64,000 bases of DNA from Candidatus Shapirobacteria bacterium (GCA_022837635.1 JALHFY010000002.1:5055-69054), one strand, 5' to 3'; shown: positions 1,059 to 63,152, numbered from the stretch's first letter. Made by a program: numbers and translations. Notes: generated from the letters alone by a model not told the origin.

Positions 1059-2459
1059 ATGGAGTATCGTATTAGGGAGCGGCCCTCTGGTCAGGAAAGT
1101 GAGGCTGCTGGTTGGCAGTTAAGAGCAGAAAAAAAACGGATTTTTTTAGAAAGAGGAATGGAGCGAATTGGCGTGGAATTAGGAAAAAGAAAGTTGAGAG
1201 CAGTGATTGAAGGAGAAGGTCAGGTGGCGATTGTGAGAGAGGGGAAAATAGCTTATTTATCAAATCAAAGTCAGGGAGAAATCAGAACTGGTGATGAAGT
1301 TTGGATAGTAACAGAAGTGAGGGTAAAAATAGATTTTGTCAAAAAAGAGAAAATTAAAAAAGAAATTTTTGTCTCCGAAAGGAGATGGTTTGATCAAAGA
1401 GTCAGCAAGGAATTGAATGTAATTTTGGGGGTGGGAGTATTGGCGATATTGCTAGGAATTATCGTCTTGGGTTATCAAAAAAGAAGTAGTGCCATGGAGC
1501 AAAATAAATTTGAGAGTGTCAAGAAAGAATTTAATGAAGAATTAAAAAGAGCTCAAGAAATTAGAGAAAAAGAACCTGATAAAAGTTTAGAAATAGTGGA
1601 AAAAGCGGTAGAAAAATTAAGAGAGCGTAAATTCAAAAAGAGTGATTTGACTAATGAAATAAATAGATTAACAGAAGAAGGAATTAGTTATCAAAATAAG
1701 TTGGGACGGGAGAACAAAAATTATGAGGTGGCTTACAACACTAAATTAATTTATGAAGGCGAGAGACAATTTGACGGTTTGGCGAGTAAGGAATCGGTAA
1801 TTTATTTATGGAGTAAGGAGAGGGCTGAAGTAATAGCAGTGAATTTGGAGATGCAATCTAAGGATAAGATAGTGGCAGATGAAAAGATTGGAAAAACTGA
1901 AGGAGTGTTTAATAACGGAGAAAGATGGTATGGATACGGAGAGAATAAAGTGTGGGAGATAAAAAGAAATGCGGTAGAAGAAAGCCCAATAGAATCTTTG
2001 GAAATAGATCAAGTCAGTGCTTGGAAAGGATTGATCTATGCTCTAAATAATGAGCAAAGACAGATAGTTAAATTGAGTGGAAGTAGTTGGACAAAATGGA
2101 ACAACACTCCCCTGCCGGCGACCATGACCGGAATGGCCATTGACGGCGATATTTGGACGTTGTCGGAGGGGGCGCAGATTTATAAATTCACCCGAGGAGA
2201 AAAGGTGAACTTTGAAATGAGTTTTAAGCCACCGGCAGTTAATCCGGGGAAAATTATCACCAGCGACAAGGTAAACATAGTCGCCTTTATTAATGATGAT
2301 AAAGTGTGGATTTATGGAAAAAATGGTAAAATTTTGGCCAGACTTAATTTTGGTAAAAATGAAATCGTGGACATCGCGATAGAAAATCCGAAGGAGGCCG
2401 TTTTAGTCCTGGCCGCAGACGGAAATATTTACCGAGTCAAAAACAATGAGATATTTTAA
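1059..2459 (+). CDS. hypothetical single-pass membrane protein with coiled-coil and extracytoplasmic domain
   Basis: 466-aa ORF with a TM segment (ILGVGVLAILLGIIVLG) and a charged coiled-coil stretch; no recognisable catalytic motif. Confidence 0.4.
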   Translation: MEYRIRERPSGQESEAAGWQLRAEKKRIFLERGMERIGVELGKRKLRAVIEGEGQVAIVREGKIAYLSNQSQGEIRTGDEVWIVTEVRVKIDFVKKEKIKKEIFVSERRWFDQRVSKELNVILGVGVLAILLGIIVLGYQKRSSAMEQNKFESVKKEFNEELKRAQEIREKEPDKSLEIVEKAVEKLRERKFKKSDLTNEINRLTEEGISYQNKLGRENKNYEVAYNTKLIYEGERQFDGLASKESVIYLWSKERAEVIAVNLEMQSKDKIVADEKIGKTEGVFNNGERWYGYGENKVWEIKRNAVEESPIESLEIDQVSAWKGLIYALNNEQRQIVKLSGSSWTKWNNTPLPATMTGMAIDGDIWTLSEGAQIYKFTRGEKVNFEMSFKPPAVNPGKIITSDKVNIVAFINDDKVWIYGKNGKILARLNFGKNEIVDIAIENPKEAVLVLAADGNIYRVKNNEIF

Positions 2460-2856
2460 TCGTGAGAGTCACGACTATAAATTTATTGACAAAATGGTGG
2501 CCGGAATGGTGTTAAACGGCGCCGATGCCAAGTCCCTAAGAGTGGCCGGGGTCCAATTCAAGGGAGCTAAAGTGGAAGTGATCAATGGCATTCCCAAGGT
2601 GTTTAATTTACAAATCAGTCCTTATAAATATAGTCGGAATCAAGAAATTGATAAAAGTGGTGAGAGAAAATTACTCTTAAATTCCCGAGAAATTGCTAAA
2701 CTACAAAGTTATCGGAGACAAAAATATATGCTGATTCCGATAGCGATTTTTTTACAGGGAAAGTGGTTTAAGATGGAAATTGGAATTGGCAGAAAGATGA
2801 GGAAGTTTGAAAAAAGGGAGAAGATTAGGAAGGAGGAGTTTGAGAAAAATAATTAG
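2446..2856 (+). CDS. smpB: SsrA-binding protein SmpB
   Basis: N-terminal ...ESHDYKFIDKMVAGMVLNGADAKSLR... matches the SmpB core; basic C-terminal tail; a tmRNA gene lies immediately downstream. Confidence 0.85.
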   Translation: MRYFNRESHDYKFIDKMVAGMVLNGADAKSLRVAGVQFKGAKVEVINGIPKVFNLQISPYKYSRNQEIDKSGERKLLLNSREIAKLQSYRRQKYMLIPIAIFLQGKWFKMEIGIGRKMRKFEKREKIRKEEFEKNN

Positions 2857-2888
2857 ACAGTAGAAACACAATTTATATTTTTACGTTG

Positions 2889-3265
2889 CGGAGATGCCCG
2901 GGAATGAACCGGGGTCCGAAATTGAAATTAAAAAACGTCGACAAGCTTAAGTAAAAAACATCGATTGGTTGGGACATTACTCCCTCTTAGGTCTGACAAT
3001 AACCGAGAAATCATCAGACAGCAGTTTAAAATGGTTGACACTGTTTAAGCCCTTTTAGACAAGAGCAAAAACAATGGTTGATTGCTTAAGCTAGTGCGTA
3101 AGCAGGAGCCGCAGGAGCATTGATACCAGTAAAGGCATCGGCTACTTTGGTCAAATCAACGCCAAAAGTTTTTTTGGCATAATGTTTTGATTCTCTTTTA
3201 CGACGATGAATCAAAGTCGGCTTGCAGTTTTTTAAGGTGCAATCCCGTCAAGGCGTTACATCTCC
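2889..3265 (-). ncRNA. ssrA: tmRNA (ssrA)
   Basis: The minus-strand 5' end GGAGAUGUAACGCCUUGACGGGAUUGCACC resembles canonical GGGGCUG...UUCGACGGGAUUUGCG. The 3' end ...GGACCCCGGUUCAUUCCCGGGCAUCUCC has a T-arm with a UUCAUUC loop and a 7-bp acceptor pairing with the 5' end. An internal in-frame tag ORF reads ...ADAFTGINAPAAPAYALA then a TAA stop (stop at 3086-3088 on the minus strand). The gene is adjacent to smpB. Confidence 0.75.
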
Positions 3266-3408
3266 ATGAGGAGTTATATTTTATCATAAAAACAGACAGA
3301 AATCATGATAATTGAGTACTATTTTTTTAAGGAAAATTGCAAAATCTGAGCCAATAAAATAAGTCTATATTAGTTTTCAGATTTAGTTAAGTATTTTACA
3401 ATTAGAGG

Positions 3409-4053
3409 ATGAGTTGGTTAATAGATTGGTTATATCCAAAAAAATGTTTAGGCTGTGGTCGGGGTGATGATTATTTGTGCAATTTCTGTGAAAGAAAAAT
3501 AAAAATAGCCGGATTGAGGCAAAAATCCGGATTTGAAGGTCTAATTTCAATTTATAAATATGACGGAGTGATGAAAAAAATAATTGAGGAGATTAAGTAT
3601 CAACATTTGTCAGCGGCAATTGAGAGTTTGGGACAAAAAATGGGACAAAGCTTAAAAATTAATTATCCAGAGACTGTTAAACATTGGCAAAAAGAGCATT
3701 TTGTTCTGGTACCGATACCATTATATAAAGGCAGAGAAAATTGGCGGGGTTTTAATCAAGCCAGAGAAATAGCGGTGGTGGTGGCACAAAAATTAGGTTT
3801 GGAATATGCTGAAATTTTAGAGAGAAAGAAAAAGGGGGTAAATTTAGCCAAAATTCATAATCACCAACAAAGAATGGCGGAGATTAAGGGGGTGTTTAGA
3901 GTAAAAAATGAAATTGAGAGAAGAGAGAAAATAATCTTAGTGGATGATGTAATTACCAGCGGGGCGACTATGACTGAGGCGTTGAAGACCTGGAAAAAGG
4001 TGTCTCCTCAGGGGCGGGGTTGGGGTTTGAGTCTGGCCGGAGTCCGGAGATGA
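3409..4053 (+). CDS. comF: ComF family phosphoribosyltransferase-domain protein
   Basis: N-terminal Cys pairs (CLGCG...CNFCE) and a C-terminal PRTase motif ILVDDVITSGATM; the true stop is probably earlier than the ORF end. Confidence 0.7.
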   Translation: MSWLIDWLYPKKCLGCGRGDDYLCNFCERKIKIAGLRQKSGFEGLISIYKYDGVMKKIIEEIKYQHLSAAIESLGQKMGQSLKINYPETVKHWQKEHFVLVPIPLYKGRENWRGFNQAREIAVVVAQKLGLEYAEILERKKKGVNLAKIHNHQQRMAEIKGVFRVKNEIERREKIILVDDVITSGATMTEALKTWKKVSPQGRGWGLSLAGVRR

Positions 4054-4702
4054 GACGTTCATTTTTAATCATGTCGGCGTCTTTGAGGATGTCTTTGACT
4101 TCGCTGGAACCCAGAGCATTTTCCAAAGGAGTAAGAGAACTGAGATAAAAATTTTCGACAAAAAGACCATGTGAAGTGAGAGAATCGCGAAGCTCCTGTT
4201 TGACCTCGTCCTCAATCAGGCTGCGGTTGGTAGAGAGAGCTTTAGCTAGAGTATGATTGGTTAAAACCTTGCGGATACGACTACGGGTAACTGGGCGAAC
4301 GACTTTAGAAACAAAATTTTCGCCAATGTTTTGCCAAATTTCAGGTAGTCTTTCAGTGTCAAGTTTGATTAAAACAGTGGCTTCGATAGAGACAAATTGA
4401 TTGTCAGCGGTAACAGCATGAATAACTTCATCCCCCATAATTTCGTTGTTGTCTTTGAGAGAGATATCTTTGGAAATAGTGTATTCAATTAGTTGAGCAT
4501 TAAAAAGTTTGACTCGCTGAATCAAAGGAATCTTGAAATGCATGCCGGGGTACCAAACATTTTTGAGAACACCACGGAAAACATCATAAATACAGCCGAC
4601 GTGACCGGGAGGAATGGTGACAATAAAGCCGCCAACGATTTCGTCAACGAAGAGAGAAACTAGTAAATTATCGATAGATGCCATATGGATTGAATTATAC
4701 AC
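3968..4702 (-). CDS. SPFH/band-7 (prohibitin/HflK-C-like) domain protein
   Basis: N-terminal TM region followed by a band-7 core (...KIPLIQRVKLFNAQLIEYT...VSIEATVLIKLD...); the start may be the internal MASIDN. Confidence 0.65.
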   Translation of the reverse strand: MYNSIHMASIDNLLVSLFVDEIVGGFIVTIPPGHVGCIYDVFRGVLKNVWYPGMHFKIPLIQRVKLFNAQLIEYTISKDISLKDNNEIMGDEVIHAVTADNQFVSIEATVLIKLDTERLPEIWQNIGENFVSKVVRPVTRSRIRKVLTNHTLAKALSTNRSLIEDEVKQELRDSLTSHGLFVENFYLSSLTPLENALGSSEVKDILKDADMIKNERLISGLRPDSNPNPAPEETPFSRSSTPQS

Positions 4703-5387
4703 TAAAGGCAGTAGCTAAAGCCATTAGTTCTTTTTGAGGATCAGCAGCCTTGACTACAGAGGAGGCAACTAAAATCCCTTGAGCGCCTAATTTAAGGCCA
4801 GTGCTAACATCAGAGGCTTGGTGAATACCGGCACCGATAAGTAGTTTTTTATGACCTAAAATTTGGGCAAAGTGTTGGACTTGTTGGGGTTTGCCGGTGG
4901 ACACTGAAATTTGACTGTTGCCGATATATTCTTTGGGTTCATAGGCAAAAAAAGTGGGATTTAAGTTTTTGGCCCAGGAATTGAGTTGACCTAAAGTTTG
5001 GAGACATAAAACCGAATCAAAGTCTTTGGGCCAGTGCTTGAGCAATGATTTAATTGTTCCTGGTTTGAGACGGTGCTCGGAATGGTTTAGGAGAGAGCCT
5101 TTGATGCCCAAGGATTGGGCATGAAGAGGGGAAATAAAACCGCTGTGGGCACCTTCTAAAAAGGGATCAACATGTTGGAGATAGACTTCTATACCTAATT
5201 TTTGATGGATGTTAACGGCATCCAGAGCAGAGACTACGGGATAAATTTTGACGCCAGTTTGTTGAGACACTGATTTAGCCATGGCGGCAAAATCAAGGGC
5301 TTTATAGGCGAAAGTTTGGGGATAAAGTTTAAGGTTTAAGAGTATCACCGCTGAGTTTATATTTACTAATAACTTGAGAAATGCCAT
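4695..5387 (-). CDS. tpiA: triosephosphate isomerase, archaeal type
   Basis: NLKLY (archaeal NFKTY catalytic Lys region), LLNHSEHR, AYEP, LIGAGI...GILVASSVVKAADP. The protein is collinear with the ~225-aa archaeal TIMs rather than bacterial TpiA. Confidence 0.75.
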   Translation of the reverse strand: MAFLKLLVNINSAVILLNLKLYPQTFAYKALDFAAMAKSVSQQTGVKIYPVVSALDAVNIHQKLGIEVYLQHVDPFLEGAHSGFISPLHAQSLGIKGSLLNHSEHRLKPGTIKSLLKHWPKDFDSVLCLQTLGQLNSWAKNLNPTFFAYEPKEYIGNSQISVSTGKPQQVQHFAQILGHKKLLIGAGIHQASDVSTGLKLGAQGILVASSVVKAADPQKELMALATAFSV

Positions 5388-6828
5388 TTTGAAGAGTGGT
5401 CATGACTTCGGTTTCACTTAATTGATTGCGAGTAATAGCATTGATAGCGTCCTTAAAATAATTATTCAATTCAGTATTAAGACCATCATCGTGAGTAAAA
5501 CTGGAAAGATAGCCACTTTGAGCGGTAGGAGCAGAATCAATAAAGGCTTTGAGATAGGGCGCAGTGACCAATTTGGCGGCCAGGTCAGTGCGGGGATAAA
5601 TTTCTCCAAAACCTCGATCAACCGAAGCGGTTTGATAAAGTTTTTCCAGAACTGGAGGAGAGGCTAGATATTCTAGAAAAGTCCAAGCTTCAGCCTGATG
5701 AGGACTTTGAGAATTGACAGCCTCGACCCAATAAGTGGCCCAATTAATATTGGTGAGGTTAGCGTTGTCACCACTGCCACCACCGGTAAGGACTGGCATT
5801 TGAGGAACTGGGGCAGTGGCAAAAGATAAATTGGGGTTAAGAGCTTGAATATCAAAAATACGCCAGGATGGGGCAAAATAAAAGGCAAGTTTACCTTGAG
5901 CAAAAAGGGTGGTAGAAGAAGGTAAAGTCTCATCCCAGATTTTTTCTTTGGTTTTGAAGTTGGTGTAATAGGTGAGAACATCTTTTATTTTGCCATCATT
6001 TTCAGGGTTATTGATAAGAGTCAAAGAGGCACCGTTTTGACGCAATAATAAGCCTAGAATATCGCTCCAATGGTCAACATTATCAGCCAGACCAAGAGCG
6101 GCACCAGCAATTTCAATGTTGCCTGCAGGATCGCGAACAGTCAGGCGATTAAGACTACTTTGTAAATCCCACCAAGATTTAGGCAGGTCGACTCCAGCTT
6201 TTTGAATTAAATCTTTGTTATAAAAAAGAACCAAGCCGTCATACATCAAAGGGAGAGCATAATAATTGTCATTAATAACTAAATCACGTTGATAAACAGG
6301 TAAAAAGTCTTTTTTTAAGCCTAGTGAAGTCACTATGTTTGCCGGTACAGGGGCCAAATTATTTTTGAACATTGGCAACCAGGAACTATGGATTCTAAAA
6401 ATATCCGGGACTTCCCCACTACCGATATCCTTGGCGAGACGACCGGCTAAGCGAGTTCGGTAATCATCTTTGGAACTGTGAACGTATTTGATTTTAATAT
6501 GAGGATATTTGGCTTCAAAATCAGTAATAATTCCGTTGACGATTTCATTTTTTTCCCAAAGACCCCAGTAAGTAAGAGTAACTGTTTCTTTGTTTTTGTT
6601 TTTGAGACTAGGTAAGAGAAATTTAAGGACCAGAAAGGCGACCAACAAGAGTGCCAGACCACCAATGATAAAGGGTAAAAAACGGGGTAAAGATTTTTTT
6701 GGGGGAGGAGGAAGAGGTGAAGAAGAAATGGTATCAGCAGGGATATCAGTCCGAGGCGATTCTGGAATTGATGAAGGCTCAGCCACCGGTCGAGGCGGGA
6801 GAGGTGATTGAATATCAATGGTTTCCAC
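5329..6828 (-). CDS. ABC transporter substrate-binding protein (family 1, sugar-type), membrane anchored
   Basis: Pro-rich N-terminus, a TM anchor, then ...TLTYWGLWEKNE...PDIFRIHSSWLPMF...YALPLMYDGLVLFYNKDL..., typical of extracellular solute-binding proteins. Confidence 0.6.
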   Translation of the reverse strand: METIDIQSPLPPRPVAEPSSIPESPRTDIPADTISSSPLPPPPKKSLPRFLPFIIGGLALLLVAFLVLKFLLPSLKNKNKETVTLTYWGLWEKNEIVNGIITDFEAKYPHIKIKYVHSSKDDYRTRLAGRLAKDIGSGEVPDIFRIHSSWLPMFKNNLAPVPANIVTSLGLKKDFLPVYQRDLVINDNYYALPLMYDGLVLFYNKDLIQKAGVDLPKSWWDLQSSLNRLTVRDPAGNIEIAGAALGLADNVDHWSDILGLLLRQNGASLTLINNPENDGKIKDVLTYYTNFKTKEKIWDETLPSSTTLFAQGKLAFYFAPSWRIFDIQALNPNLSFATAPVPQMPVLTGGGSGDNANLTNINWATYWVEAVNSQSPHQAEAWTFLEYLASPPVLEKLYQTASVDRGFGEIYPRTDLAAKLVTAPYLKAFIDSAPTAQSGYLSSFTHDDGLNTELNNYFKDAINAITRNQLSETEVMTTLQNGISQVISKYKLSGDTLKP

Positions 6829-9703: not shown

Positions 9704-10248
9704 TATAAGTTATCTTTTTCCCAGTTTTTAGGATTGTTTTTAATATACTTTTGAACAATAAAGAGTCGTTTGGGTGAATTGATAATTTCGTCGTAATAGC
9801 CAGATTGCCAAGCAAAAAGCAGATTATTTTGGCGGCAGCGACGAGTAACTGAGGACTTAAATTGGTTAATGATTAGAGGGATAATTTGTTTGGATTTTTG
9901 ATTTAATTTATTAAAAAAGTCGGGGTGGTTTTTGTGGGTATGAGTGATAATTTGAGATACGGGATTACCTTGTAGAGACGCCCCGCGGGGCGTCTCTACA
10001 GGAATGGAGATAAGCCAGTGAAGATGATTGGGCATAATCACCCACCCTAAAGAAAGAATTTCGGGATGAAAATGAATTGTTTTTGAGATTTCTTCAAAGG
10101 CAATTTGTCCGACGGAACTTAAAATAACCTGGCCATTGATGATTTTAGCCAAAAAACGATTATGTTTGTAAGTACAAATGGTAATAAAATAATGACCTGG
10201 ACGGGAATAATCCCAGTTTTTCAAACGACTGGATAAAGCACGGGGCAT
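9700..10248 (-). mobile_element. IS200/IS605-family Y1 (HUH) transposase, REP-associated tyrosine transposase-like
   Basis: HUH motif NHLHWLI and catalytic Tyr motif WQSGYYDEI; about 180 aa, stand-alone, with no flanking IS ends recognised. Confidence 0.65.
9972..9999. repeat. perfect 28-bp GC-rich palindrome inside the Y1 transposase ORF
   Basis: GTAGAGACGCCCCGCGGGGCGTCTCTAC is exactly self-complementary, GC-rich in an AT-rich context, and in frame (encodes ...ETPRGASLQGN...). Confidence 0.8.
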
Positions 10249-49983: not shown

Positions 49984-49999
49984 TTGGTAATATAAAGGT

Positions 50000-50260
50000 A
50001 TGAATTATTACCTTTATATATTAAAAAGTTGTGATGGTAAACATTGGTATACAGGCTCGACAAGCAATATAATGTTGAGACTAAAACACCATAATAATGG
50101 TCATACATTTTCCACTAAACCGTATAGACCATGGAAATTAGTTTACTACGAAAAATTTAGTAGCCGGAAAGAAGCTTTTCGGAGAGAAATGTTTTTAAAG
50201 TCTCCGTCCGGTTATCAAGATTATTTGAAAATTAAAAAATCTATTGGAGGGGTCGGATAG
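50000..50260 (+). CDS. small GIY-YIG nuclease-family protein
   Basis: YYLYILKSCDGKHWYTGST...RLKHHN...; GIY-YIG core in 86 aa. The 3' end overlaps the first 15 nt of tRNA-Ser. Confidence 0.7.
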   Translation: MNYYLYILKSCDGKHWYTGSTSNIMLRLKHHNNGHTFSTKPYRPWKLVYYEKFSSRKEAFRREMFLKSPSGYQDYLKIKKSIGGVG

Positions 50261-55150: not shown

Positions 55151-55840
55151 ATGGAAGAACTACATGAATATCAATTTTCAATTTTAAGAACTTTATTATT
55201 TAAACCAGGAGCACGATTTTCCGAATTAAATAAAGTCGGTATAAGTAGTGATCATTTTAATTTTCATGTTAAACAATTGAGTAATTGGGGTTTGGTTAAA
55301 AAGGAAAATCAAAGATACTTTTTGACTAATAAAGGTAAGGAATTGGCGGGGAGGATGGATACTGATCAACTGACGATAGAGAAACAAGCCAAGTTGGGGG
55401 TGGCATTACATGCTGTTCGTAAGAATAAGGGAGTGACGGAATATTTAATTCATCATCGATTAAAAGAACCACTGTATGGTTGGTACGGTTCACATTCAGG
55501 CAAAATTCGTCGGGGAGAAAATCCGGAAGAAACCGCCAAACGAGAGTTTTTTGAGGAAACAGGTTTAACAGGTAAATTTAGTCTGAAAGCGATTAAGCAA
55601 CAACGAGAATTTGATGCTACCGGGAAATTGTTAGAGGATAAATATTTTTGGGTCTATCGAGTGGATGATGTCCAAGGTACGTTGAAAGAAAAGGTAGAGG
55701 AGGGGGAAAATTTGTGGATGACAAAAGAAGAAATTAAAAAACTAAAAAATGTGTTTGCCAGTTTTGAGGAAATGTATGAAGTTTTGGAGAGTCAAGAAGT
55801 GTTGATTTTAAGAGGTGACAGGACGCTGGAAAAATATTAA
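55151..55840 (+). CDS. winged-HTH + NUDIX hydrolase fusion protein (paralog A)
   Basis: N-terminal approx. 70-aa wHTH (ILRTLLFKPGARFSELNKV...HVKQLSNWGLV); C-terminal Nudix box GKIRRGENPEETAKREFFEETGL. Confidence 0.65.
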   Translation: MEELHEYQFSILRTLLFKPGARFSELNKVGISSDHFNFHVKQLSNWGLVKKENQRYFLTNKGKELAGRMDTDQLTIEKQAKLGVALHAVRKNKGVTEYLIHHRLKEPLYGWYGSHSGKIRRGENPEETAKREFFEETGLTGKFSLKAIKQQREFDATGKLLEDKYFWVYRVDDVQGTLKEKVEEGENLWMTKEEIKKLKNVFASFEEMYEVLESQEVLILRGDRTLEKY

Positions 55841-56455
55841 TTAATCTAACAAATGGGCTTGGTCGTTCCAGCATTTAAGTTGCCAGGGGCCGTGTTCGTT
55901 GGTCAAAATGGAAATACCAGTATTGCCTAATCTAAGGAATTTTCTTGAATCGATGACAATTTGAGGAGTGAGATTATCGCCAAAAAAGAGAAGAGAGGTG
56001 AGGAAACTGATGAAGTTACCATGAGAGACAACTAAAATATTGTCTTGATTAAATGACTCTAAAAATTTGATAGCCTGGTATCCCCTCTTTTGTAAATCAT
56101 AAAAATTTTCTTCATCGGAATAGTGCCAATGGGGGTCGGAGACAAATTTTTCTTTAATTTTTTTTAAAACAGAGGTTACCTGAGGATTTTCATAGGCGAG
56201 ACCGACAATTTCTGAAGGTTTTCTAGTTTCAATAAAAAGATCACTGGCGATAACTTTTTTAGAAATAAAATTGGCAGTTTGAAGGGCTCTGGTGTAGGAG
56301 GAAGAAACAACTAAATCTAATTTAAAATCTTCGAAACGATGGGCTAATTTTTTAGCTTGCTCCAGTCCCTTGTCATTGAGAGGCTCATCAGGAGTTTGAG
56401 TTTTGGCCTGTTGACGGGCATCAGTGGCCCCATGACGAACAAAATAAAGGTTCAT
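55841..56455 (-). CDS. histidine-phosphatase superfamily protein
   Basis: YFVRHGAT (RHG motif), ...SSYTRALQTA..., ...VVSHGNFI; overlaps the upstream NUDIX gene by 4 nt (operon). Confidence 0.7.
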   Translation of the reverse strand: MNLYFVRHGATDARQQAKTQTPDEPLNDKGLEQAKKLAHRFEDFKLDLVVSSSYTRALQTANFISKKVIASDLFIETRKPSEIVGLAYENPQVTSVLKKIKEKFVSDPHWHYSDEENFYDLQKRGYQAIKFLESFNQDNILVVSHGNFISFLTSLLFFGDNLTPQIVIDSRKFLRLGNTGISILTNEHGPWQLKCWNDQAHLLD

Positions 56456-56943
56456 ATTTTGTGTGCGTATTTTTCATCAAAGATTTTAATGACATGGTCA
56501 ATTTTGGAGGGGTCGATTTGGCGAGTTTGCATAATTTCTTCGATAAAAGGACGAAGTTCAACATAAGTAAGGTGAGTACTGGGAGTCAATTTTAATTTAG
56601 CCACCTCGTCAAGAGTAAACCAAGCGATACCTTGACCTTCACCGGGACCAAGTTTAAATTTGTCTTCATCTGCCTTGTCAACAAAAGCGACAAAAACATG
56701 GACATTTTCGCCACGACTGCCCCGACGGGTAAGAACATGTTGACAATGTGGCAATCTAACGGAAACTTCTTCCTCAACTTCACGAAGCACGGCCTCGCGG
56801 GGACTTTCCCCCGGCTCAATGCCACCACCGACTATTTGCCAACAATCAGGTGAAGGAATAGTGGGAATGTTGTCCCGATGAAAAAGAAGAACTTTGTCAG
56901 GGCTCATGATTAAAGCACTAGCACCATCTTTGACTCTTTCCAT
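56452..56943 (-). CDS. NUDIX hydrolase
   Basis: Nudix box GGGIEPGESPREAVLREVEEEVSV. Confidence 0.75.
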   Translation of the reverse strand: MERVKDGASALIMSPDKVLLFHRDNIPTIPSPDCWQIVGGGIEPGESPREAVLREVEEEVSVRLPHCQHVLTRRGSRGENVHVFVAFVDKADEDKFKLGPGEGQGIAWFTLDEVAKLKLTPSTHLTYVELRPFIEEIMQTRQIDPSKIDHVIKIFDEKYAHKI

Positions 56944-57004
56944 GAGAATATTGTATCGCTAATGGATATAGACTGATTGAAAAGAAGTTGGAGGAAAGAG
57001 GAAA

Positions 57005-57421
57005 TTATTTCAACAGGGATTTAAACTCGGGATAATTTTCGGCGATAATTTTTTTCCATTTGTCGGTTTCTCGAGGTTCACCAATTTCGTTTTTGGAATA
57101 CACCAACAGGATTCTGATAGTTTTTTTATGGGAATCAACGGCGGCAATAAGGCGATTGCCTGAACTTTTGGCGGAAATATTGCTACCGGCAATCTTAAAA
57201 TCAAGCTTAACAATCATCCAGGAATCAATGGGACAGATAATATCCAACTGTGCGGTGTTGGAAATATGCTTGGGAGCAATATTATCATAACGACGAAGAA
57301 ATTCTCTGATGGCAGTTAAAGTGACATTCCAGGCTTTACCTTTATATTTTTTGGAAAACTTGCGAATATAGTGATTTTCGGCAAATCTTTCAATAAAAAC
57401 TGAATAGTCATTAGTAGACAT
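57005..57421 (-). CDS. putative toxin of a Panacea-type toxin-antitoxin pair (family unknown)
   Basis: 138-aa basic protein whose start overlaps the 3' end of the HTH-Panacea gene by 11 nt; no known toxin motif recognised. Confidence 0.4.
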   Translation of the reverse strand: MSTNDYSVFIERFAENHYIRKFSKKYKGKAWNVTLTAIREFLRRYDNIAPKHISNTAQLDIICPIDSWMIVKLDFKIAGSNISAKSSGNRLIAAVDSHKKTIRILLVYSKNEIGEPRETDKWKKIIAENYPEFKSLLK

Positions 57422-58091
57422 AATCGGGGTCCTGTTGGGTGATTAATTCGTAAGGTATCACTTCCCCGGGGTTACAAATTTGATAAGGAAGTTGCTGATG
57501 AGTGAAATCAACGATTTCTGAAGTTCTTTTACCTTTCCATTTTTGGGCAATTTTCTGGATTAATTGTTGTTCTTGAGTATTTAAGATTTTGGATTGGAAT
57601 TGCTGGCCGGTATCGCTAAGACTAATCAATTGACTATTGTCTTTGAAGAGAATATTGATTTTTCCATCTAAAAAAAGTTCATCAATGGCCCGAAAATAGT
57701 GGTTGGGAACAGGACCTTGGTCCAAACGGCGATATTGAGCACCGGTCATTGGTTCTAGTTGTGAATAAAACCAGGCAAAATCAGCTAAGTAAATGAGTTT
57801 AGCAAGTTTGGTTTTGGTCATTTGACCGTCATCATCGGCACCATATTTGAGCATGTTTAACAAAACTTCAGTATATTTTTCTTCGTTTAAGATGTTTTCG
57901 GAAATGATATCAGTAGTACCAACACCGAGTCTGTTGGCCAAATTGCTAACTTGGTTCAAGGTTAAATTGGGACTACCGTTTTTTTCCAGGGCGATATAGG
58001 TGGCACGAGAAATACCTAGAGCGGCAGCCATTTGGGCTTGAGTCCAACCTTGATTTTTACGTAACTTGGCAATGTATTGTGCATCAATCAT
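57411..58091 (-). CDS. XRE-family HTH + Panacea (DUF4065) domain antitoxin-like protein
   Basis: N-terminal HTH (LRKNQGWTQAQMAAALGISRATYIALEKNG); C-terminal ...KTKLAKLIYLADFAWFYSQLEPMTGAQY..., typical of Panacea/SocA-like domains. Confidence 0.65.
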   Translation of the reverse strand: MIDAQYIAKLRKNQGWTQAQMAAALGISRATYIALEKNGSPNLTLNQVSNLANRLGVGTTDIISENILNEEKYTEVLLNMLKYGADDDGQMTKTKLAKLIYLADFAWFYSQLEPMTGAQYRRLDQGPVPNHYFRAIDELFLDGKINILFKDNSQLISLSDTGQQFQSKILNTQEQQLIQKIAQKWKGKRTSEIVDFTHQQLPYQICNPGEVIPYELITQQDPDYVY

Positions 58092-58115
58092 GCTTTAGTT
58101 TAGTTCTGAGTGGTA

Positions 58116-58140
58116 AAAATGTCAAATTTTTTGACATTTT
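58116..58140. promoter_or_regulatory. inverted repeat operator upstream of the HTH-Panacea gene
   Basis: AAAATGTCAAA-ttt-TTTGACATTTT about 25 nt upstream of the start, plus a third half-site AAAATGTCA at 58167-58175. Confidence 0.4.
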
Positions 58141-58221
58141 AATGTAAAAAATGGGGACAGGATTTGAAAATGTCACACTGGATAAAAAGTCAGGTGGAGG
58201 AATATTTACGACCACAAAATA

Positions 58222-58785
58222 TTATTTTTTAAGAGATATATTTGACTGTGAATTACGAAAAGTTGCGGTAATTTTGGTAAATATGTGACGTGGATGATCG
58301 TTGTTTTGATCAAAAGTCATCTTTTCATTTTTTGGTTCTATGAAAAGTTGAGCTTTATCTTTGCTTTTTCGACTGCCAGCCAACACCATTAATTGAGCTT
58401 CATTTTTTTTATTTTTAGAAATTTTAACTTCAACCCAATAATCATCATCAGATTTGTGTTCATTTTTAACTTTTATTAATTCTCCGTCTATATTAATAAT
58501 GTCTGCATTTTTAAACTTAAATGACTTGGAAATGCTTATAAAGTCTTCTGTTTTTTCCTCAATTGGCTTATCAAGAGTAATTTTAAAATCACAGTTTATA
58601 CACTCATACTTGTATTCCCCTATAGAATACTTTTCTTTAGATTTTTTTAGATTGCAATTACATTTAGGGTTTGGACATAATGGAGTTGTGTGGGTACTTA
58701 TAGAACCACTAAAAGGATTCTTGACATAAAACAAATGCCAATTAATTTTATGCCAATGATATATTATTAGTTTTTTGTGTTTCAT
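58222..58785 (-). CDS. hypothetical Cys-rich protein (very AT-rich gene)
   Basis: CPNPKCNC...CINC zinc-ribbon-like motifs; Lys-rich; compositionally aberrant. Confidence 0.3.
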   Translation of the reverse strand: MKHKKLIIYHWHKINWHLFYVKNPFSGSISTHTTPLCPNPKCNCNLKKSKEKYSIGEYKYECINCDFKITLDKPIEEKTEDFISISKSFKFKNADIINIDGELIKVKNEHKSDDDYWVEVKISKNKKNEAQLMVLAGSRKSKDKAQLFIEPKNEKMTFDQNNDHPRHIFTKITATFRNSQSNISLKK

Positions 58786-58925
58786 ACTTTTGTATAAATT
58801 TATGAAATGTACATTATATATACCGAAATAAACCCGAAGTCAAGAGGTGTGATTTAATCAATATTAAGAATGAATATTGAAAATTAACTACTTTACTTCG
58901 GGTATTGATCGGGTAATATGTAAGT

Positions 58926-59708
58926 ATGGAAGTGTATTTTAAACAACCGAATTTCTGTCTTTATAAAGGTGATTGTGTACAGGTGTTAAAAAAAATTAAA
59001 AACAATTCGGTTGATATGATATTTGCCGATCCTCCTTACTTTTTATCAAACGGTACCTTTACTTGTAAAAATGGGAAAATGGTTAGTGTCAAAAAAGGTG
59101 AATGGGATATGGGAAAAAGTTTAAAAGAAAATTTAAAATTTCATACCAAGTGGATAAAAGAATGTAAAAGAGTATTAAAACCTGAAGGTACCATATGGAT
59201 TAGCGGAACTTACCATTCAATATATCAATGTGGTTTTGCTTTACAAAAAAATGATTATAAAATTTTAAATGAAATAGTTTGGTATAAACCTAATGCTTCA
59301 CCGAATTTAAGTTGTCGATTTTTTACAGCCAGCCATGAGACTTTGATTTGGGCTCGGAAAGACAAAAAAGCTAAACATACTTTCAATTATGATGTGGTTA
59401 AAAATAATGATTGGCCCAAAGACTTTTTGAAAAAGAAAGGTTTTCAAATGAGATCAGTTTGGGCTATTTATACCCCAAGAAAAGAAGAAAAAGTTTTTGG
59501 AAAACATCCAACCCAAAAATCACTCGAACTGCTCAATAGAATCATCCTGTCGAGTACAAAAAAAGGAGATATTGTTTTGGATCCATTTACAGGAAGCTCA
59601 ACCACTGGTATTGCAGCCATAACAAATGATCGGCAATTTTTAGGGATAGACACTGAAAAGGAATATTTAGATTTGTCAATAAAAAGATACAAAGCTTTGA
59701 TAAAATAA
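58926..59708 (+). CDS. beta-class N6-adenine/N4-cytosine DNA methyltransferase (DpnA/MboIC-like)
   Basis: Motif IV FADPPYF near the N-terminus and motif I VLDPFTGSSTTG near the C-terminus (beta permutation). Confidence 0.8.
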   Translation: MEVYFKQPNFCLYKGDCVQVLKKIKNNSVDMIFADPPYFLSNGTFTCKNGKMVSVKKGEWDMGKSLKENLKFHTKWIKECKRVLKPEGTIWISGTYHSIYQCGFALQKNDYKILNEIVWYKPNASPNLSCRFFTASHETLIWARKDKKAKHTFNYDVVKNNDWPKDFLKKKGFQMRSVWAIYTPRKEEKVFGKHPTQKSLELLNRIILSSTKKGDIVLDPFTGSSTTGIAAITNDRQFLGIDTEKEYLDLSIKRYKALIK

Positions 59709-59712
59709 AGAC

Positions 59713-60252
59713 ATGATACAAGGTGGTGTTGGTGGAGCTAACACAAAAACAGGCTTATATTATGAAGGTAAGGTGGATCTGCTGACATTTATAGCTTCTA
59801 AAAAAGGTTATTCTATAAAGGATAATATTGTTTATTTTCACGGGAAAGAAGTTGCTCAAACATTTAAGAAACATGCTCTCTATACATACTTGGCTAAACG
59901 AGGAATAAATTATAAAGATTACATATCAAAAAAATTATTACCAGATGATTCGATTTTTGTAATAGTCAAAAATACTTTATTTATCATAGAAGTGAAGTTT
60001 CAAAGAGTAGCAGGTTCTACGGATGAAAAACTACAAACTTGTGATTTTAAAATCAAACAGTACAGAAAACTATTATCAAGATTAAATATAGAAGTAAAGT
60101 TTATTTATATTCTCAACAGAGAATGGTTTGATAAACCGGTGTATAAAGATGTACTTGATTACATTGTTTCGATAGATGGTTGTCGGTATTATTTTGACTA
60201 TCTGCCATTACATGAACTTGGTTTACCAGTACCTGATGGTGAAAATGACTAA
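59713..60252 (+). CDS. putative PD-(D/E)xK restriction endonuclease (small)
   Basis: LPDD...IIEVKFQ resembles the PD-(D/E)xK motif; positioned between two MTase genes; start 5 nt after the MTase stop. Confidence 0.4.
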   Translation: MIQGGVGGANTKTGLYYEGKVDLLTFIASKKGYSIKDNIVYFHGKEVAQTFKKHALYTYLAKRGINYKDYISKKLLPDDSIFVIVKNTLFIIEVKFQRVAGSTDEKLQTCDFKIKQYRKLLSRLNIEVKFIYILNREWFDKPVYKDVLDYIVSIDGCRYYFDYLPLHELGLPVPDGEND

Positions 60253-61100
60253 TAGCTGGTAATAATTAGTTCTTTGATTTTTCCTCTTTTCTCTCCTTTG
60301 CTATTAATTGAACGAGCTGAGTATACTTCATGAATATTAAACGGCTGATACAGCTTTCTAATGAAATCTGTATTGGAATTACTTAACATAACAAAACATC
60401 CTTTTTGGTGTAGTTGTTTAAAAGTTTCTGATAATTTTATTTGTTCCTTGAAAGTAAAATTATTTTTTGAGTAATTGGTAAAGTTGGCGGTGGTGTTTAA
60501 TGGATAATAAGGAGGATCGAAATAAATAAAATCACTTTTTTTACAAGTTTTTATTGATTCCTCAAAAGAAGTACTAGTAATATGAGTATCGTGTAAGGTG
60601 TGGGATACGGCTTGAATATTACCTACGTCGCAAATGGTTGGGTTGGGTTGATCGCCAAAGGGAATATTATATTCACCTTTGGAATTTTCACGATACATTC
60701 CGTTAAAACAAGTTTTGTTAAGGAAAATAAGATAGGCGCAGTAAGTTAAATTGTCTAATGAATTTTGATTATATTCTTGGCGAATTTGATAAAAATATTT
60801 TTTTTGATTATCTAAATTAAGTTTTTTGTATTCCTTTTCTATATTTTTTAGAAGTTTGATCAAGGAATCAGGATCCTGCTTGATAATTTCATAACAGTTC
60901 ATCAGTTTTTTATTAATATCATTGATATAAGAATGATTTGTGATGAGTTTTTTATTAGACAATTCAAAGAATAAGGCTCCCCCTCCCATAAATGGTTCGT
61001 AATAATTATTGATTTTGTTAGGGATCAGTTTCGAAATCTCCGGGATGAGTTTACTTTTTCCTCCAACCCATTTAACGAATGGTTTTGCTGGTTTTGTCAT
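60249..61100 (-). CDS. Dam-family (alpha-class, D12) N6-adenine DNA methyltransferase, probably GATC-specific
   Basis: VKWVGGKSKLIPEI, YYEPFMGGGALFF (motif I), DPPYYPL (motif IV); collinear with E. coli Dam/DpnM. Confidence 0.85.
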   Translation of the reverse strand: MTKPAKPFVKWVGGKSKLIPEISKLIPNKINNYYEPFMGGGALFFELSNKKLITNHSYINDINKKLMNCYEIIKQDPDSLIKLLKNIEKEYKKLNLDNQKKYFYQIRQEYNQNSLDNLTYCAYLIFLNKTCFNGMYRENSKGEYNIPFGDQPNPTICDVGNIQAVSHTLHDTHITSTSFEESIKTCKKSDFIYFDPPYYPLNTTANFTNYSKNNFTFKEQIKLSETFKQLHQKGCFVMLSNSNTDFIRKLYQPFNIHEVYSARSINSKGEKRGKIKELIITSY

Positions 61101-61154: not shown

Positions 61155-61817
61155 ATGAAGCAAAAAGAGTTGGAGAAAATACAGGCGGAATATAAGAGGA
61201 TTTTTGGAAATGTATGGGAGAAAGGTGGGGGTTGGGGGTATAGATACAAACATGGCGTCAGGGTGATGCGATATTGTCAAAAAATTGTCAAATATAATCG
61301 TTTTAAGAAAGAAAAATTGGATATAGAGGCGCTGTTGGTGGCGGCCTTGTTTCATGATATCGGCAAAATCAGGGCGGTGAACAAAAACAGAGAATTGGTA
61401 TATGGTAATTATGGCGGAGAAACACATGAGGCTTTAGGAGCAAAATTGGCGCCAAAATATTTGAGGAAATTTGTTAAAGATAAAAATAAATTGGAGTTGA
61501 TTTCACTGTTTATTGCCGAACAAGAACCAGAAAAAAGTGAAATCAGGACCGAATCAAAAATTATTAAAGACGCCGATAGATTGGATCATTTCGGAGTTAT
61601 TCATTTGTTGGTATCGGCGGTATATGCCAATTACAACCGTAAAAATATTGAGGGATTACGGGAATTTTGGGAGGGAGAGGAAGGTAAGAAAAAATATTTG
61701 AGAAATTTTGAAAAATTTAATTTTCCGGAGGTAAAAAAGGTGGCGATGAAGAGATTTGCTAATTTAAGTCGGGCGACGGAGCTAATTTTTGAAGAGGATG
61801 AAGGGAGAGATCTTTAG
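61155..61817 (+). CDS. HD-domain phosphohydrolase
   Basis: ...ALLVAALFHDIGK... HD motif, ...DADRLDHFG... Confidence 0.7.
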   Translation: MKQKELEKIQAEYKRIFGNVWEKGGGWGYRYKHGVRVMRYCQKIVKYNRFKKEKLDIEALLVAALFHDIGKIRAVNKNRELVYGNYGGETHEALGAKLAPKYLRKFVKDKNKLELISLFIAEQEPEKSEIRTESKIIKDADRLDHFGVIHLLVSAVYANYNRKNIEGLREFWEGEEGKKKYLRNFEKFNFPEVKKVAMKRFANLSRATELIFEEDEGRDL

Positions 61818-62332
61818 GAATTGTTAGGGTGGAGTTGGTGGTATTTTTTTAGGGCCGTGGTAAAGAGCTGATCACCGGTTTTGCCCCAGCGCAGATATTT
61901 AGGTAAATCCGCGGGATCGATAAAGATTCTTTGATGAATCTGACCACTTTCCGGATCGATTTGTGGTTTGAGAATTTTTTTAATATCGGCGATGTAAAAC
62001 ATTTGAATGAACCACGGTTGTTGACTATTGGCTTTTTGGACTTTGAAACCACCAACCAGCTGAGGATTTTGAAGTAAAACATTGGCTTCTTCTTCAATTT
62101 CTCGATGTAAAGTTTCTAGAAATGTTTCTGTAGACTTGGGGCTACCACCAGGAAATCTAAGTTCTCCATTTTCTCTGATGATCATAACTTGGCCGGTGTG
62201 GTCAAAACAAATACCACTGACAAGTGTCTTTTTGGATTTTTGTAAATCCGGATCTGATTCGTTGAGCCATTGGTAATAATAATCTTCCCCTCTCCAGTTG
62301 ACAATGATGAAATTATTTTTGATAGTGGACAT
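61814..62332 (-). CDS. NUDIX hydrolase
   Basis: Nudix box GGSPKSTETFLETLHREIEEEANV; overlaps the HD gene end by 4 nt. Confidence 0.7.
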   Translation of the reverse strand: MSTIKNNFIIVNWRGEDYYYQWLNESDPDLQKSKKTLVSGICFDHTGQVMIIRENGELRFPGGSPKSTETFLETLHREIEEEANVLLQNPQLVGGFKVQKANSQQPWFIQMFYIADIKKILKPQIDPESGQIHQRIFIDPADLPKYLRWGKTGDQLFTTALKKYHQLHPNNS

Positions 62333-62444: not shown

Positions 62445-63152
62445 TTAGAACTCATCACCATAGCTGTGTAGTAATTCATAAAATGGCACATTGTTTATCG
62501 CCATATTCATTTCCAGTTCGAAACTTTTGTAAGTCTTTTCATTTTTCATGACGTAATCCATGGTTTGCCAGCTGTTTCTGCCACCCTCGTACTCTTCCAT
62601 TAATTTTCCTGATGATTTGTCACAAAACATCAAATGAAAAATCTTATCTTCAATTATCTCGTGAGTCTTTTCGTGTAAAACTCGTTCGTGAAAAACGCCA
62701 CGATGCTCAAAAATTCCTTTAAGCCCCGTCTCTTCTATCAGTTCGCGACTAGCGGCGGCAGGAATTGATTCGCCCCAACGAATTTTGCCAGTTGGCGCGC
62801 CACAAAATCCATAATATGGATGCTTAAGTCGTTGCTGAATTAAGTAGTGTTTTTTGCCGTTAATTTCTTTTTCGACCACCAACATAACGGAAACTTTCGG
62901 CTGTCTTTCAATCACGCCTGCGTCAGTGTCAAGTTTGTTGGCATATTCGCGACCTTTGATTGACAATTGGTATTTGCCGGATGTTGTTTTATCAACGTAG
63001 CCTGTTTGAACTAATCGTTTGATGTGAAATTTGGCGTGGTCGCTTTCTAGTCCGGTGATTTTTTGTAAATTAGTAAAACTGGTAGCGGGCAAGAATAATA
63101 ATTCTCGCAAAATTTTGGTTTGGGCTTGATGAATTTCACCTTCAAATGCCAT
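62445..63152 (-). CDS. winged-HTH + NUDIX hydrolase fusion protein (paralog B)
   Basis: N-terminal wHTH (ILRELLFLPATSFTNLQKI...HIKRLVQTGYV); Nudix box GKIRWGESIPAAASRELIEETGL. Alignable over its full length with the 55151 gene. Confidence 0.65.
   Translation of the reverse strand: MAFEGEIHQAQTKILRELLFLPATSFTNLQKITGLESDHAKFHIKRLVQTGYVDKTTSGKYQLSIKGREYANKLDTDAGVIERQPKVSVMLVVEKEINGKKHYLIQQRLKHPYYGFCGAPTGKIRWGESIPAAASRELIEETGLKGIFEHRGVFHERVLHEKTHEIIEDKIFHLMFCDKSSGKLMEEYEGGRNSWQTMDYVMKNEKTYKSFELEMNMAINNVPFYELLHSYGDEF

Follow-up and report, generated by a model that had tools for sequence, protein, structure and literature searches.

We analyzed a pair of overlapping genes on the minus strand of a 64,000-nucleotide (nt) stretch of DNA, hereafter called the window, from an ultra-small member of the Patescibacteria, a Candidatus Shapirobacteria bacterium (GCA_022837635.1 JALHFY010000002.1:5055-69054). 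The upstream gene, panA, codes for a candidate antitoxin of 226 amino acids (aa) with a helix-turn-helix (HTH) domain and a Panacea domain, and the downstream gene, panT, codes for a candidate toxin of 138 aa. As detailed below, we favor, with a probability of roughly 75%, the interpretation that this cassette is an autoregulated PanAT type II toxin-antitoxin (TA) module whose toxin is a diverged relative of RelE and HigB-2.

The end of panA overlaps the start of panT by 11 nt (Table 1), and an AGGA sequence resembling a Shine-Dalgarno motif lies within panA (57433-57430), 9 nt ahead of the panT ATG. The two genes probably share a single promoter and a bicistronic mRNA, and the overlap would couple their translation. 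An earlier note on this DNA had described an XRE-HTH-Panacea gene overlapping, by 11 nt, the gene for a basic 138-aa protein of no recognizable toxin family. This description is accurate. Both open reading frames (ORFs) and their overlap are located as claimed, and the toxin candidate has an isoelectric point of 9.74, compared to 5.47 for the antitoxin. Furthermore, searches with hidden Markov models (HMMs) found no significant match for the 138-aa protein in Pfam, NCBIfam, PADLOC, or PHROGs, whereas PanA passes the test for both of its proposed domains.

Table 1. Features of the panA-panT cassette, its promoter region, and the adjoining upstream segment (positions are counted from the first nucleotide of the window)
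Feature	Position	Strand	Basis or remark
panT, 138-aa basic toxin candidate, diverged RelE/HigB-2-like	57005-57421	-	AlphaFold2 model, Foldseek, family profile
panA, 226-aa antitoxin candidate	57411-58091	-	Pfam domains; homologous ORF upstream of the toxin gene in all loci
Overlap of panA stop and panT start, ATGTCTACTAA	57411-57421	-	11 nt
Predicted sigma-70-type promoter	58097-58125	-	Promoter scan, 10/12 consensus positions
Operator-like perfect palindrome, AAAATGTCAAA-N3-TTTGACATTTT (11-3-11)	58116-58140		Arms 100% complementary
Palindrome core, TGTCAA-N5-TTGACA	58120-58136		
Conserved TTTACA element, 6 nt 5' of the palindrome	58143-58148	-	Clade alignment; TT(T)ACA columns invariant or near-invariant
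Third half-site, AAAATGTCA	58167-58175	+	This strain only
187-aa Cys-rich ORF of unknown function	58222-58785		
N6_N4_Mtase type II DNA methyltransferase	58926-59708		
179-aa ORF without family, possible restriction endonuclease	59713-60252		
D12/Dam-class type II DNA methyltransferase	60249-61100		Convergent

The N-terminal domain of PanA is an XRE-type HTH (HTH_3, PF01381) that spans residues 7-61 and scores 43.6 bits, which is above the Pfam gathering score. The Panacea domain (SocA_Panacea or DUF4065, PF13274) spans residues 96-203 and scores 48 bits (E-value of 2.7e-12), compared to a gathering score of 25.7. The C-terminal tail that follows this domain (residues 204-226) is highly conserved, and near-invariant residues in the C-terminal part of the protein are F196, T197, H198, Q200, P202, C206, E210, I212, and P213. 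Within the pair, the antitoxin is more strongly conserved than the toxin. An AlphaFold2 model of PanA made from its single sequence has a predicted local distance difference test score (pLDDT) of 41, with moderate confidence in the HTH region only.

PanAT systems were defined by Kurata et al. (2022, PNAS, PMC8832971), who reported that 343 PanAs carry an HTH and that PanAs form complexes with their toxins, which include MqsR, Fic/Doc, toxSAS, PemK, and ParE. In multidomain PanAs, the HTH has been argued to be responsible for DNA binding and Panacea has been proposed to serve as a sensor domain (Ernits et al. 2023, PMC10440598). The founding Panacea protein is SocA of the type VI SocAB system from Caulobacter, and SocA and PanA have this domain in common. 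Unlike PanA, SocA carries no HTH, the partner of PanA is not SocB, and the ClpXP-adaptor mechanism of SocAB is not indicated for the window pair. We rejected the possibility that PanA is a SocA-like type VI antitoxin on two grounds: PanA scores only 18.6 bits with the SocA equivalog model of NCBIfam (NF047745), for which the cut-off is 190, and its partner is predicted to have a RelE fold.

The earlier note had called for a search for the 138-aa family next to other Panacea genes, and this search revealed that the pair is strongly conserved. The survey covered 62 species genomes plus metagenomic contigs carrying four distant members, for a total of 71 loci that are almost all from Patescibacteria. 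In every one of the 71 loci, the toxin homolog directly follows a homolog of the HTH-Panacea gene that lies upstream on the same strand (phmmer E-values of 1e-38 to 1e-97). Of 60 distinct pairs, 59 show an overlap of the genes, which amounts to 20 nt in 22 pairs, 11 nt in 19, and 17-41 nt in the rest; for the sole exception (locus L045), the ORF call is truncated. The flanking genes vary between loci while the pair stays. PanA carries a PF13274 domain above the gathering score and belongs to a two-gene arrangement that is kept across genomes with varying flanks, as is characteristic of PanAT modules.

A close relative of the window cassette resides in a sister strain, Ca. Shapirobacteria UBA1420 (locus L010). 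The two toxins are 97% identical, and homology with the window is limited to positions 56969-58166, which comprise the cassette and its promoter. The panA gene of this strain is split, and we rejected a frameshift or pseudogene as the cause because the break is an NN assembly gap.

Two additional observations were made among the surveyed loci. First, a Peregrinibacteria contig (L065, 4524-5580) carries a second HTH-Panacea gene (240 aa; PF13274, 67.7 bits) directly downstream of the first pair. This gene overlaps a 116-aa ORF of no known family, and the contig therefore has tandem PanAT modules with different partners. Second, several carrier contigs (L013-L015, L024, L031, L036, L038, L040, L041, L043, and L046), many of them from termite-gut bins, are labeled Gammaproteobacteria, Oscillospiraceae, Coriobacteriales, Endomicrobium, or similar. 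The cassettes on these contigs are typical Shapirobacteria or Saccharibacteria types, which points to either misbinned contigs from candidate phyla radiation (CPR) bacteria or horizontal transfer.

The promoter region of panA carries the perfect palindrome that the earlier note had reported, and this operator-like site is conserved and lies over the -35 box. Specifically, the predicted -35 hexamer TTGACA (58125-58120) is the right half-site of the palindrome core, and it is separated by a 17-nt spacer from a predicted -10 box, TAAACT (58102-58097). The window contains three such inverted repeats (arms of 11 nt or more and spacers of 8 nt or fewer), compared to 0.2 in Markov-1 simulated sequences. 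The other two perfect inverted repeats in the window (9971-10000 and 49990-50019) are a 30-bp GC-rich palindrome, TGTAGAGACGCCCCGCGGGGCGTCTCTACA, and an AT-rich hairpin of the form 11+8+11.

We then examined promoters from related loci. Among 12 aligned promoters of the Shapirobacteria-type clade, whose toxins are 57-97% identical, the TTGACA and TGTCAA half-sites, the -10 box, and the upstream TTTACA element are invariant or near-invariant. The predicted -10 box of the window ends just 5 nt ahead of the panA ATG, and therefore the transcript is probably leaderless. This spacing, together with the lack of a Shine-Dalgarno sequence, is found both in the window promoter and in the majority (10 of 12) of the aligned promoters. 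Saccharibacteria-type loci have a TGTAAA/TTTACA variant that is located further upstream, plus a normal Shine-Dalgarno sequence, GAAAGGA.

A motif that accommodates both types, TGT[CA]AA-N3-5-TT[GT]ACA, is present in 27 of 60 distinct loci at a position no more than 130 nt upstream of panA. The rest of these loci yields only four matches in 419 kb (0.0012 per 130 nt), and the motif is thus approximately 360-fold enriched upstream of panA across the family. This recurrence and the conservation within the clade provide strong comparative evidence that the palindrome is the cognate operator of the PanA HTH, which would repress its own operon by promoter occlusion. An HTH_3 domain combined with a palindromic site that overlaps the promoter is likewise the arrangement expected of an XRE-type autorepressor, as judged from sequence.

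The earlier note had proposed a triple half-site operator, and this portion of its description is only partly retained. A third copy of the half-site does exist, and the 9-mer AAAATGTCA is overrepresented in the window (7 occurrences compared to 1.96 expected, a number reached in 0 of 100 shuffles). However, this third copy begins exactly past the end of the homology with the sister strain (58166), and it is missing from that strain and from all other promoters of the clade. Therefore, we exclude it from the operator, and it probably does not belong to the module. The element that is conserved instead is TTTACA, which may serve as an extra half-site or may be paired with TGTCCC as the right half-site of a second, weak operator, TGTCCC-N5-TTTACA (58159-58143).

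A word-indexed search with the 138-aa protein recovered 209 relatives, all from Patescibacteria (Shapirobacteria, Saccharimonadales, and others) and every one labeled "hypothetical." An exhaustive HMMER search of 1.84 billion representative sequences with a 35-sequence toxin profile yielded 230 clusters at 50% identity, of which 173 had E-values of 1e-10 or lower. With a distant member of the Saccharibacteria/Parcubacteria type (P0076) as the query, a further 807 clusters at 90% identity were recovered, the majority of them from Parcubacteria and Paceibacteria. Given these cluster counts and the predominance of Patescibacteria among the relatives, the toxin family is compact, widespread, and close to CPR-specific.

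Profile searches link this family to the HigB-2 toxin of Vibrio cholerae. The 35-sequence profile gave a weak match to HigB-2 among Protein Data Bank (PDB) sequences (E-value of 0.28). With a 103-sequence family profile, the top five matches were distinct V. cholerae HigB-2 sequences (E-value of 0.016), and no other PDB sequences were found. An hhalign comparison between the toxin family and HigB-2 gave a probability of 82.8% (E-value of 9.4e-6), although the HigB-2 profile used for this comparison was thin because the 44-residue HigB-2 fragment from which it was built brought back only five fragmentary sequences. A match to FGF (E-value of 0.1, or 0.005 against PDB sequences) was rejected as a chance hit because it spans just 33 N-terminal residues and conflicts with the predicted fold.

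That fold was obtained from an AlphaFold2 model of the toxin, which was computed from the family alignment and has a pLDDT of 87.6 and a predicted template modeling score of 0.83. The model has a first β-strand, two long helices, a four-stranded antiparallel sheet, and two C-terminal helices (β1, α, α, β4, α in outline), and it thus contains the antiparallel β-sheet and the N-terminal helical hairpin that characterize the RelE/ParE superfamily. All confident Foldseek matches in the PDB are to RelE-family proteins, with top probabilities of 0.93-1.0 and template modeling (TM) scores on the target of up to 0.75. The best match is an archaeal RelE (1wmi; E-value of 1.2e-3, probability of 1.0, and TM-score of 0.75 on the target). 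Further matches include HigB-2, Escherichia coli HigB, Thermus thermophilus RelE, Mycobacterium tuberculosis RelE2, YoeB, and the RelE-like domain of Cami1. On the basis of this model and the family profiles, the 138-aa protein is predicted to belong to the RelE/ParE superfamily, in which it would be a strongly diverged member closest to RelE and to V. cholerae HigB-2.

The alignments with HigB-2 also point to a candidate active site. The toxin segments S-x-K-x-SGNR and ILLVYSKN align with K-G-K-R-GGSR and LLTIYGKN of HigB-2, and all alignments agree on this register. The two proteins have in common the motif K-x-(S/G)G-x-R ... LL-x-(V/I)Y-x-KN and a long Ser/Lys-rich loop between β2 and β3 ahead of the Arg. 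In these alignments, which are marginal (E-value of 0.016), the catalytic residues Arg64, Tyr82, and Lys84 of HigB-2 fall on R90, Y108, and K110 of the toxin. The latter three residues show no variation in the 35-sequence alignment, and their conservation is at least 90% among the 103 sequences of the larger one. Alanine substitutions at Arg51, Arg64, Tyr82, and Lys84 of HigB-2 lower its activity by 170- to 3000-fold, with losses of 350- to 3000-fold for the last three positions (Hadzi et al. 2017, PMC5416850). Residue 76, which aligns with Arg51, is K in the window toxin, and the invariant K72, which is predicted from the strand register to lie on the same face of the same strand, is a possible fourth residue. 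By analogy with HigB-2, the toxin is most probably a ribosome-dependent mRNA endonuclease.

Because RelE and ParE proteins share one fold, the same model could describe a ParE-like DNA gyrase poison with a different target. PanA-ParE pairs are known (PMC8832971), and the long C-terminal helices of the toxin are unlike those of classical RelE. However, superfamily members among the Foldseek matches listed are almost all mRNases (RelE, HigB, HigB-2, YoeB, and YafQ), and the sole ParE-type chain among them is PrpT, which is found at rank 37 with a probability of 0.33. The family profile finds HigB-2 alone among PDB sequences, and the residues that align with its catalytic triad are conserved throughout the family even though ParE proteins do not need them. 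A gyrase poison is therefore very improbable.

The conservation of these nuclease-type residues is also relevant to whether the pair is a TA module at all. PanA could conceivably be a plain transcriptional regulator, such as a prophage-type repressor or a restriction-modification (R-M) controller, with a nontoxic cofactor that happens to have a RelE fold. In agreement with such a role, DUF4065 proteins were originally annotated as phage-associated, PHROG 1281 matches PanA, and the PanA HTH resembles R-M controller proteins and capH in PADLOC. Moreover, one viral contig (L072; IMGVR_UViG_3300027891_000022, 1404-6493) carries the pair between genes for a large serine recombinase and an Amidase_2/PG_binding lysin, an arrangement that fits a moron carried by a temperate phage that infects a CPR host. 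Yet this is the only such locus among 2.9 million viral contigs. A simple regulator would also leave the strong conservation of the partner's nuclease-type residues unexplained, and the strict overlap and co-inheritance through variable contexts are the signature of a TA module. Finally, no conserved third gene that the HTH protein might regulate is present among the loci surveyed. We consider this explanation very improbable.

The interpretation that the cassette is a PanAT module with a RelE/HigB-2-like toxin is consistent with the data described above, but several findings weigh against it. The sequence link to HigB-2 is marginal by itself, and Foldseek E-values never fall below a level just above 1e-3. 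The Pfam RelE model (PF06296) does not match the window toxin, and only 1 of 103 relatives touches it (E-value of 0.014), which explains why annotation pipelines leave the family blank. The position of Arg51 is not conserved, since many relatives have A or T in place of the K found here. In comparison with classical RelE-family toxins, the protein has 30-50 additional residues and includes invariant residues (E118, T119, and W122) without RelE counterparts, and therefore its activity could differ. Lastly, toxicity, neutralization, DNA binding, and RNA cleavage are all properties that we infer for this pair.

If the PanAT interpretation is correct, a plausible mechanism can be outlined. PanA would dimerize, probably via its XRE-HTH domain, and bind to the TGTCAA-N5-TTGACA core that includes the -35 hexamer, thereby repressing its own operon. 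As suggested by published PanAT work, PanA would neutralize the toxin by direct binding through the Panacea domain, the conserved C-terminal tail, or both. Once PanA is lost or triggered, the toxin would move into the ribosomal A site and use R90, Y108, K110, and possibly K72 to cleave mRNA, and translation would be arrested.

This proposed organization has much in common with that of established systems. The classical type II modules RelBE, YefM-YoeB, and HigBA are likewise autoregulated bicistronic operons in which the antitoxin is acidic and binds DNA, the toxin is basic and has a RelE fold, and the operator over the promoter is palindromic. In contrast to these systems, the predicted neutralizing domain of the window pair is Panacea, which is unrelated to RelB, Phd, or HigA, and the HTH occupies the N-terminal part of a larger protein with two domains. 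HigB-2 itself (PF06296, PMC5416850) is a protein of approximately 110 aa that is paired with a downstream-encoded HigA-2 rather than with an upstream-encoded HTH-Panacea protein. It also lacks the extra invariant residues of the window toxin.

Pairs of this type have already been cataloged. Dataset S1 of Kurata et al. (2022, PMC8832971) includes a predicted toxin cluster, pT15/T14, whose representative matches HigB-2 (HHpred, 99.73%) and whose entries are all marked "notest." Its HTH-PanA pairs with antitoxin-then-toxin order and an overlap of -11 nt are from Ca. Saccharimonas aalborgensis (with WP_015641600.1 in the cluster) and TM7 HOT_356, and further T14 pairs are from Cryosericum, Pedobacter, Flexibacter, and Methanobacteria (PMC8832971). 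Like the window pair, T14 pairs have an HTH-Panacea antitoxin gene that precedes and overlaps the gene for a hypothetical HigB-2/RelE-like toxin, and some members are from Patescibacteria. The window toxin family differs in being far larger, as judged from the cluster counts given above, than the two CPR entries of T14. No S. aalborgensis record was found among the cluster members of 10 distant relatives or among the matches of the P0076 search. The window pair, which resembles the T14 pairs in architecture, phylum, overlap, and remote similarity, probably belongs to this cluster.

These comparisons bear on the suggestion in the earlier note that the locus is an autoregulated PanAT-like pair with a potentially novel toxin. 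The PanAT architecture and the operator-like site stand, whereas the novelty of the toxin does not. Its predicted fold matches RelE, HigB, and YoeB structures only, HigB-2 is the top PDB match of its profile, and pairs of HTH-PanA with HigB-2-like toxins are known from T14. The family is thus best viewed as a further RelE-type partner with which the promiscuous Panacea antitoxin is paired rather than as a new type of toxin. What has been gained is that a predicted fold, candidate active-site residues, and a conserved operator can now be assigned to a widespread family of Patescibacteria "hypothetical proteins." A literature search found no paper with experiments on this CPR toxin family.

The genes that surround the cassette provide additional information regarding its possible role. 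Directly upstream is a low-GC segment (26-33%; 58222-61100) that encodes the two DNA methyltransferases, the possible restriction endonuclease, and the Cys-rich protein listed in Table 1. At the equivalent position, the sister strain instead encodes a Type ISP R-M enzyme together with a DUF3800 protein. When the 150 nearest ORFs from approximately 44 diverse loci were compared with Pfam, R-M components were the commonest neighbors (ResIII, 6; SWI2_SNF2, 5; HSDR_N, 4; Methylase_S, 4; Type_ISP_C, 3). Other neighboring families are T1R_D3, N6_Mtase, Eco57I, and Mrr_cat, along with RhuM, Fic, and PDDEXK.

Three diverse Saccharibacteria/Patescibacteria loci have a type I hsdR gene that begins 17-20 nt past the toxin stop codon on the same strand (L007, 4420-7473; L025, 4421-7480; L052, 4418-7549). 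In the first of these loci, hsdM and hsdS are located upstream, and the pair thus sits inside a type I R-M operon in a PrrC-like position. Given these varied, R-M-rich surroundings, the cassette is a mobile resident of defense islands. It is nearly restricted to Patescibacteria, and its presence in variable, R-M-rich regions fits a role in addiction or abortive infection. At another locus (L004, 1173-2989), the pair adjoins a Multi_ubiq/ThiF/BubE operon resembling bacterial ubiquitination systems, a PLD-type nuclease gene, and a gene for a large serine recombinase/resolvase, which looks like another mobile defense-island context.

Such surroundings raise the possibility that the same PanAT module is mainly a phage-defense (abortive infection) effector that is tied to adjacent R-M systems, with the Panacea domain sensing a phage cue such as an anti-restriction protein. 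This proposal overlaps the PanAT interpretation favored here and differs from it in the trigger and in the purpose of the module. The predominance of R-M components among the nearest neighbors, the position of hsdR in the three loci described above, the differing R-M systems that the window and the sister strain carry beside the same cassette, and the proposed sensor function of Panacea (Ernits et al. 2023, PMC10440598) are all in its favor. However, ordinary TA modules often reside in defense islands, such that co-location is no proof of functional coupling. Many loci have no R-M neighbor, and no PADLOC model matches the toxin. We therefore regard a primary role in phage defense as possible but somewhat unlikely.

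A more specific proposal, for which our confidence is low, is that the cassette acts across CPR bacteria as a functional partner of R-M systems, in which Panacea senses the failure or inhibition of restriction and unleashes the RelE-like toxin. This idea derives from the close spacing of hsdR to the toxin gene and from the difference in R-M systems between the window and its sister strain. If true, it would represent a PrrC-style second line of defense in bacteria from which CRISPR is mostly absent. Of all aspects of this system, only its repeated occurrence beside R-M genes has the potential to reveal something new. For CPR biology more generally, the cassette offers a common marker of defense islands, and the pair is small and tractable in E. 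coli.

The window also includes other genes near the cassette. Four separate NUDIX hydrolase genes are found in approximately 8 kb around it (55151-55840, 56452-56943, 61814-62332, and 62445-63152), and one of these encodes a fusion with a winged-helix domain. Genes for a histidine phosphatase (55841-56455) and for an HD-domain protein (61155-61817) are located in the same region.

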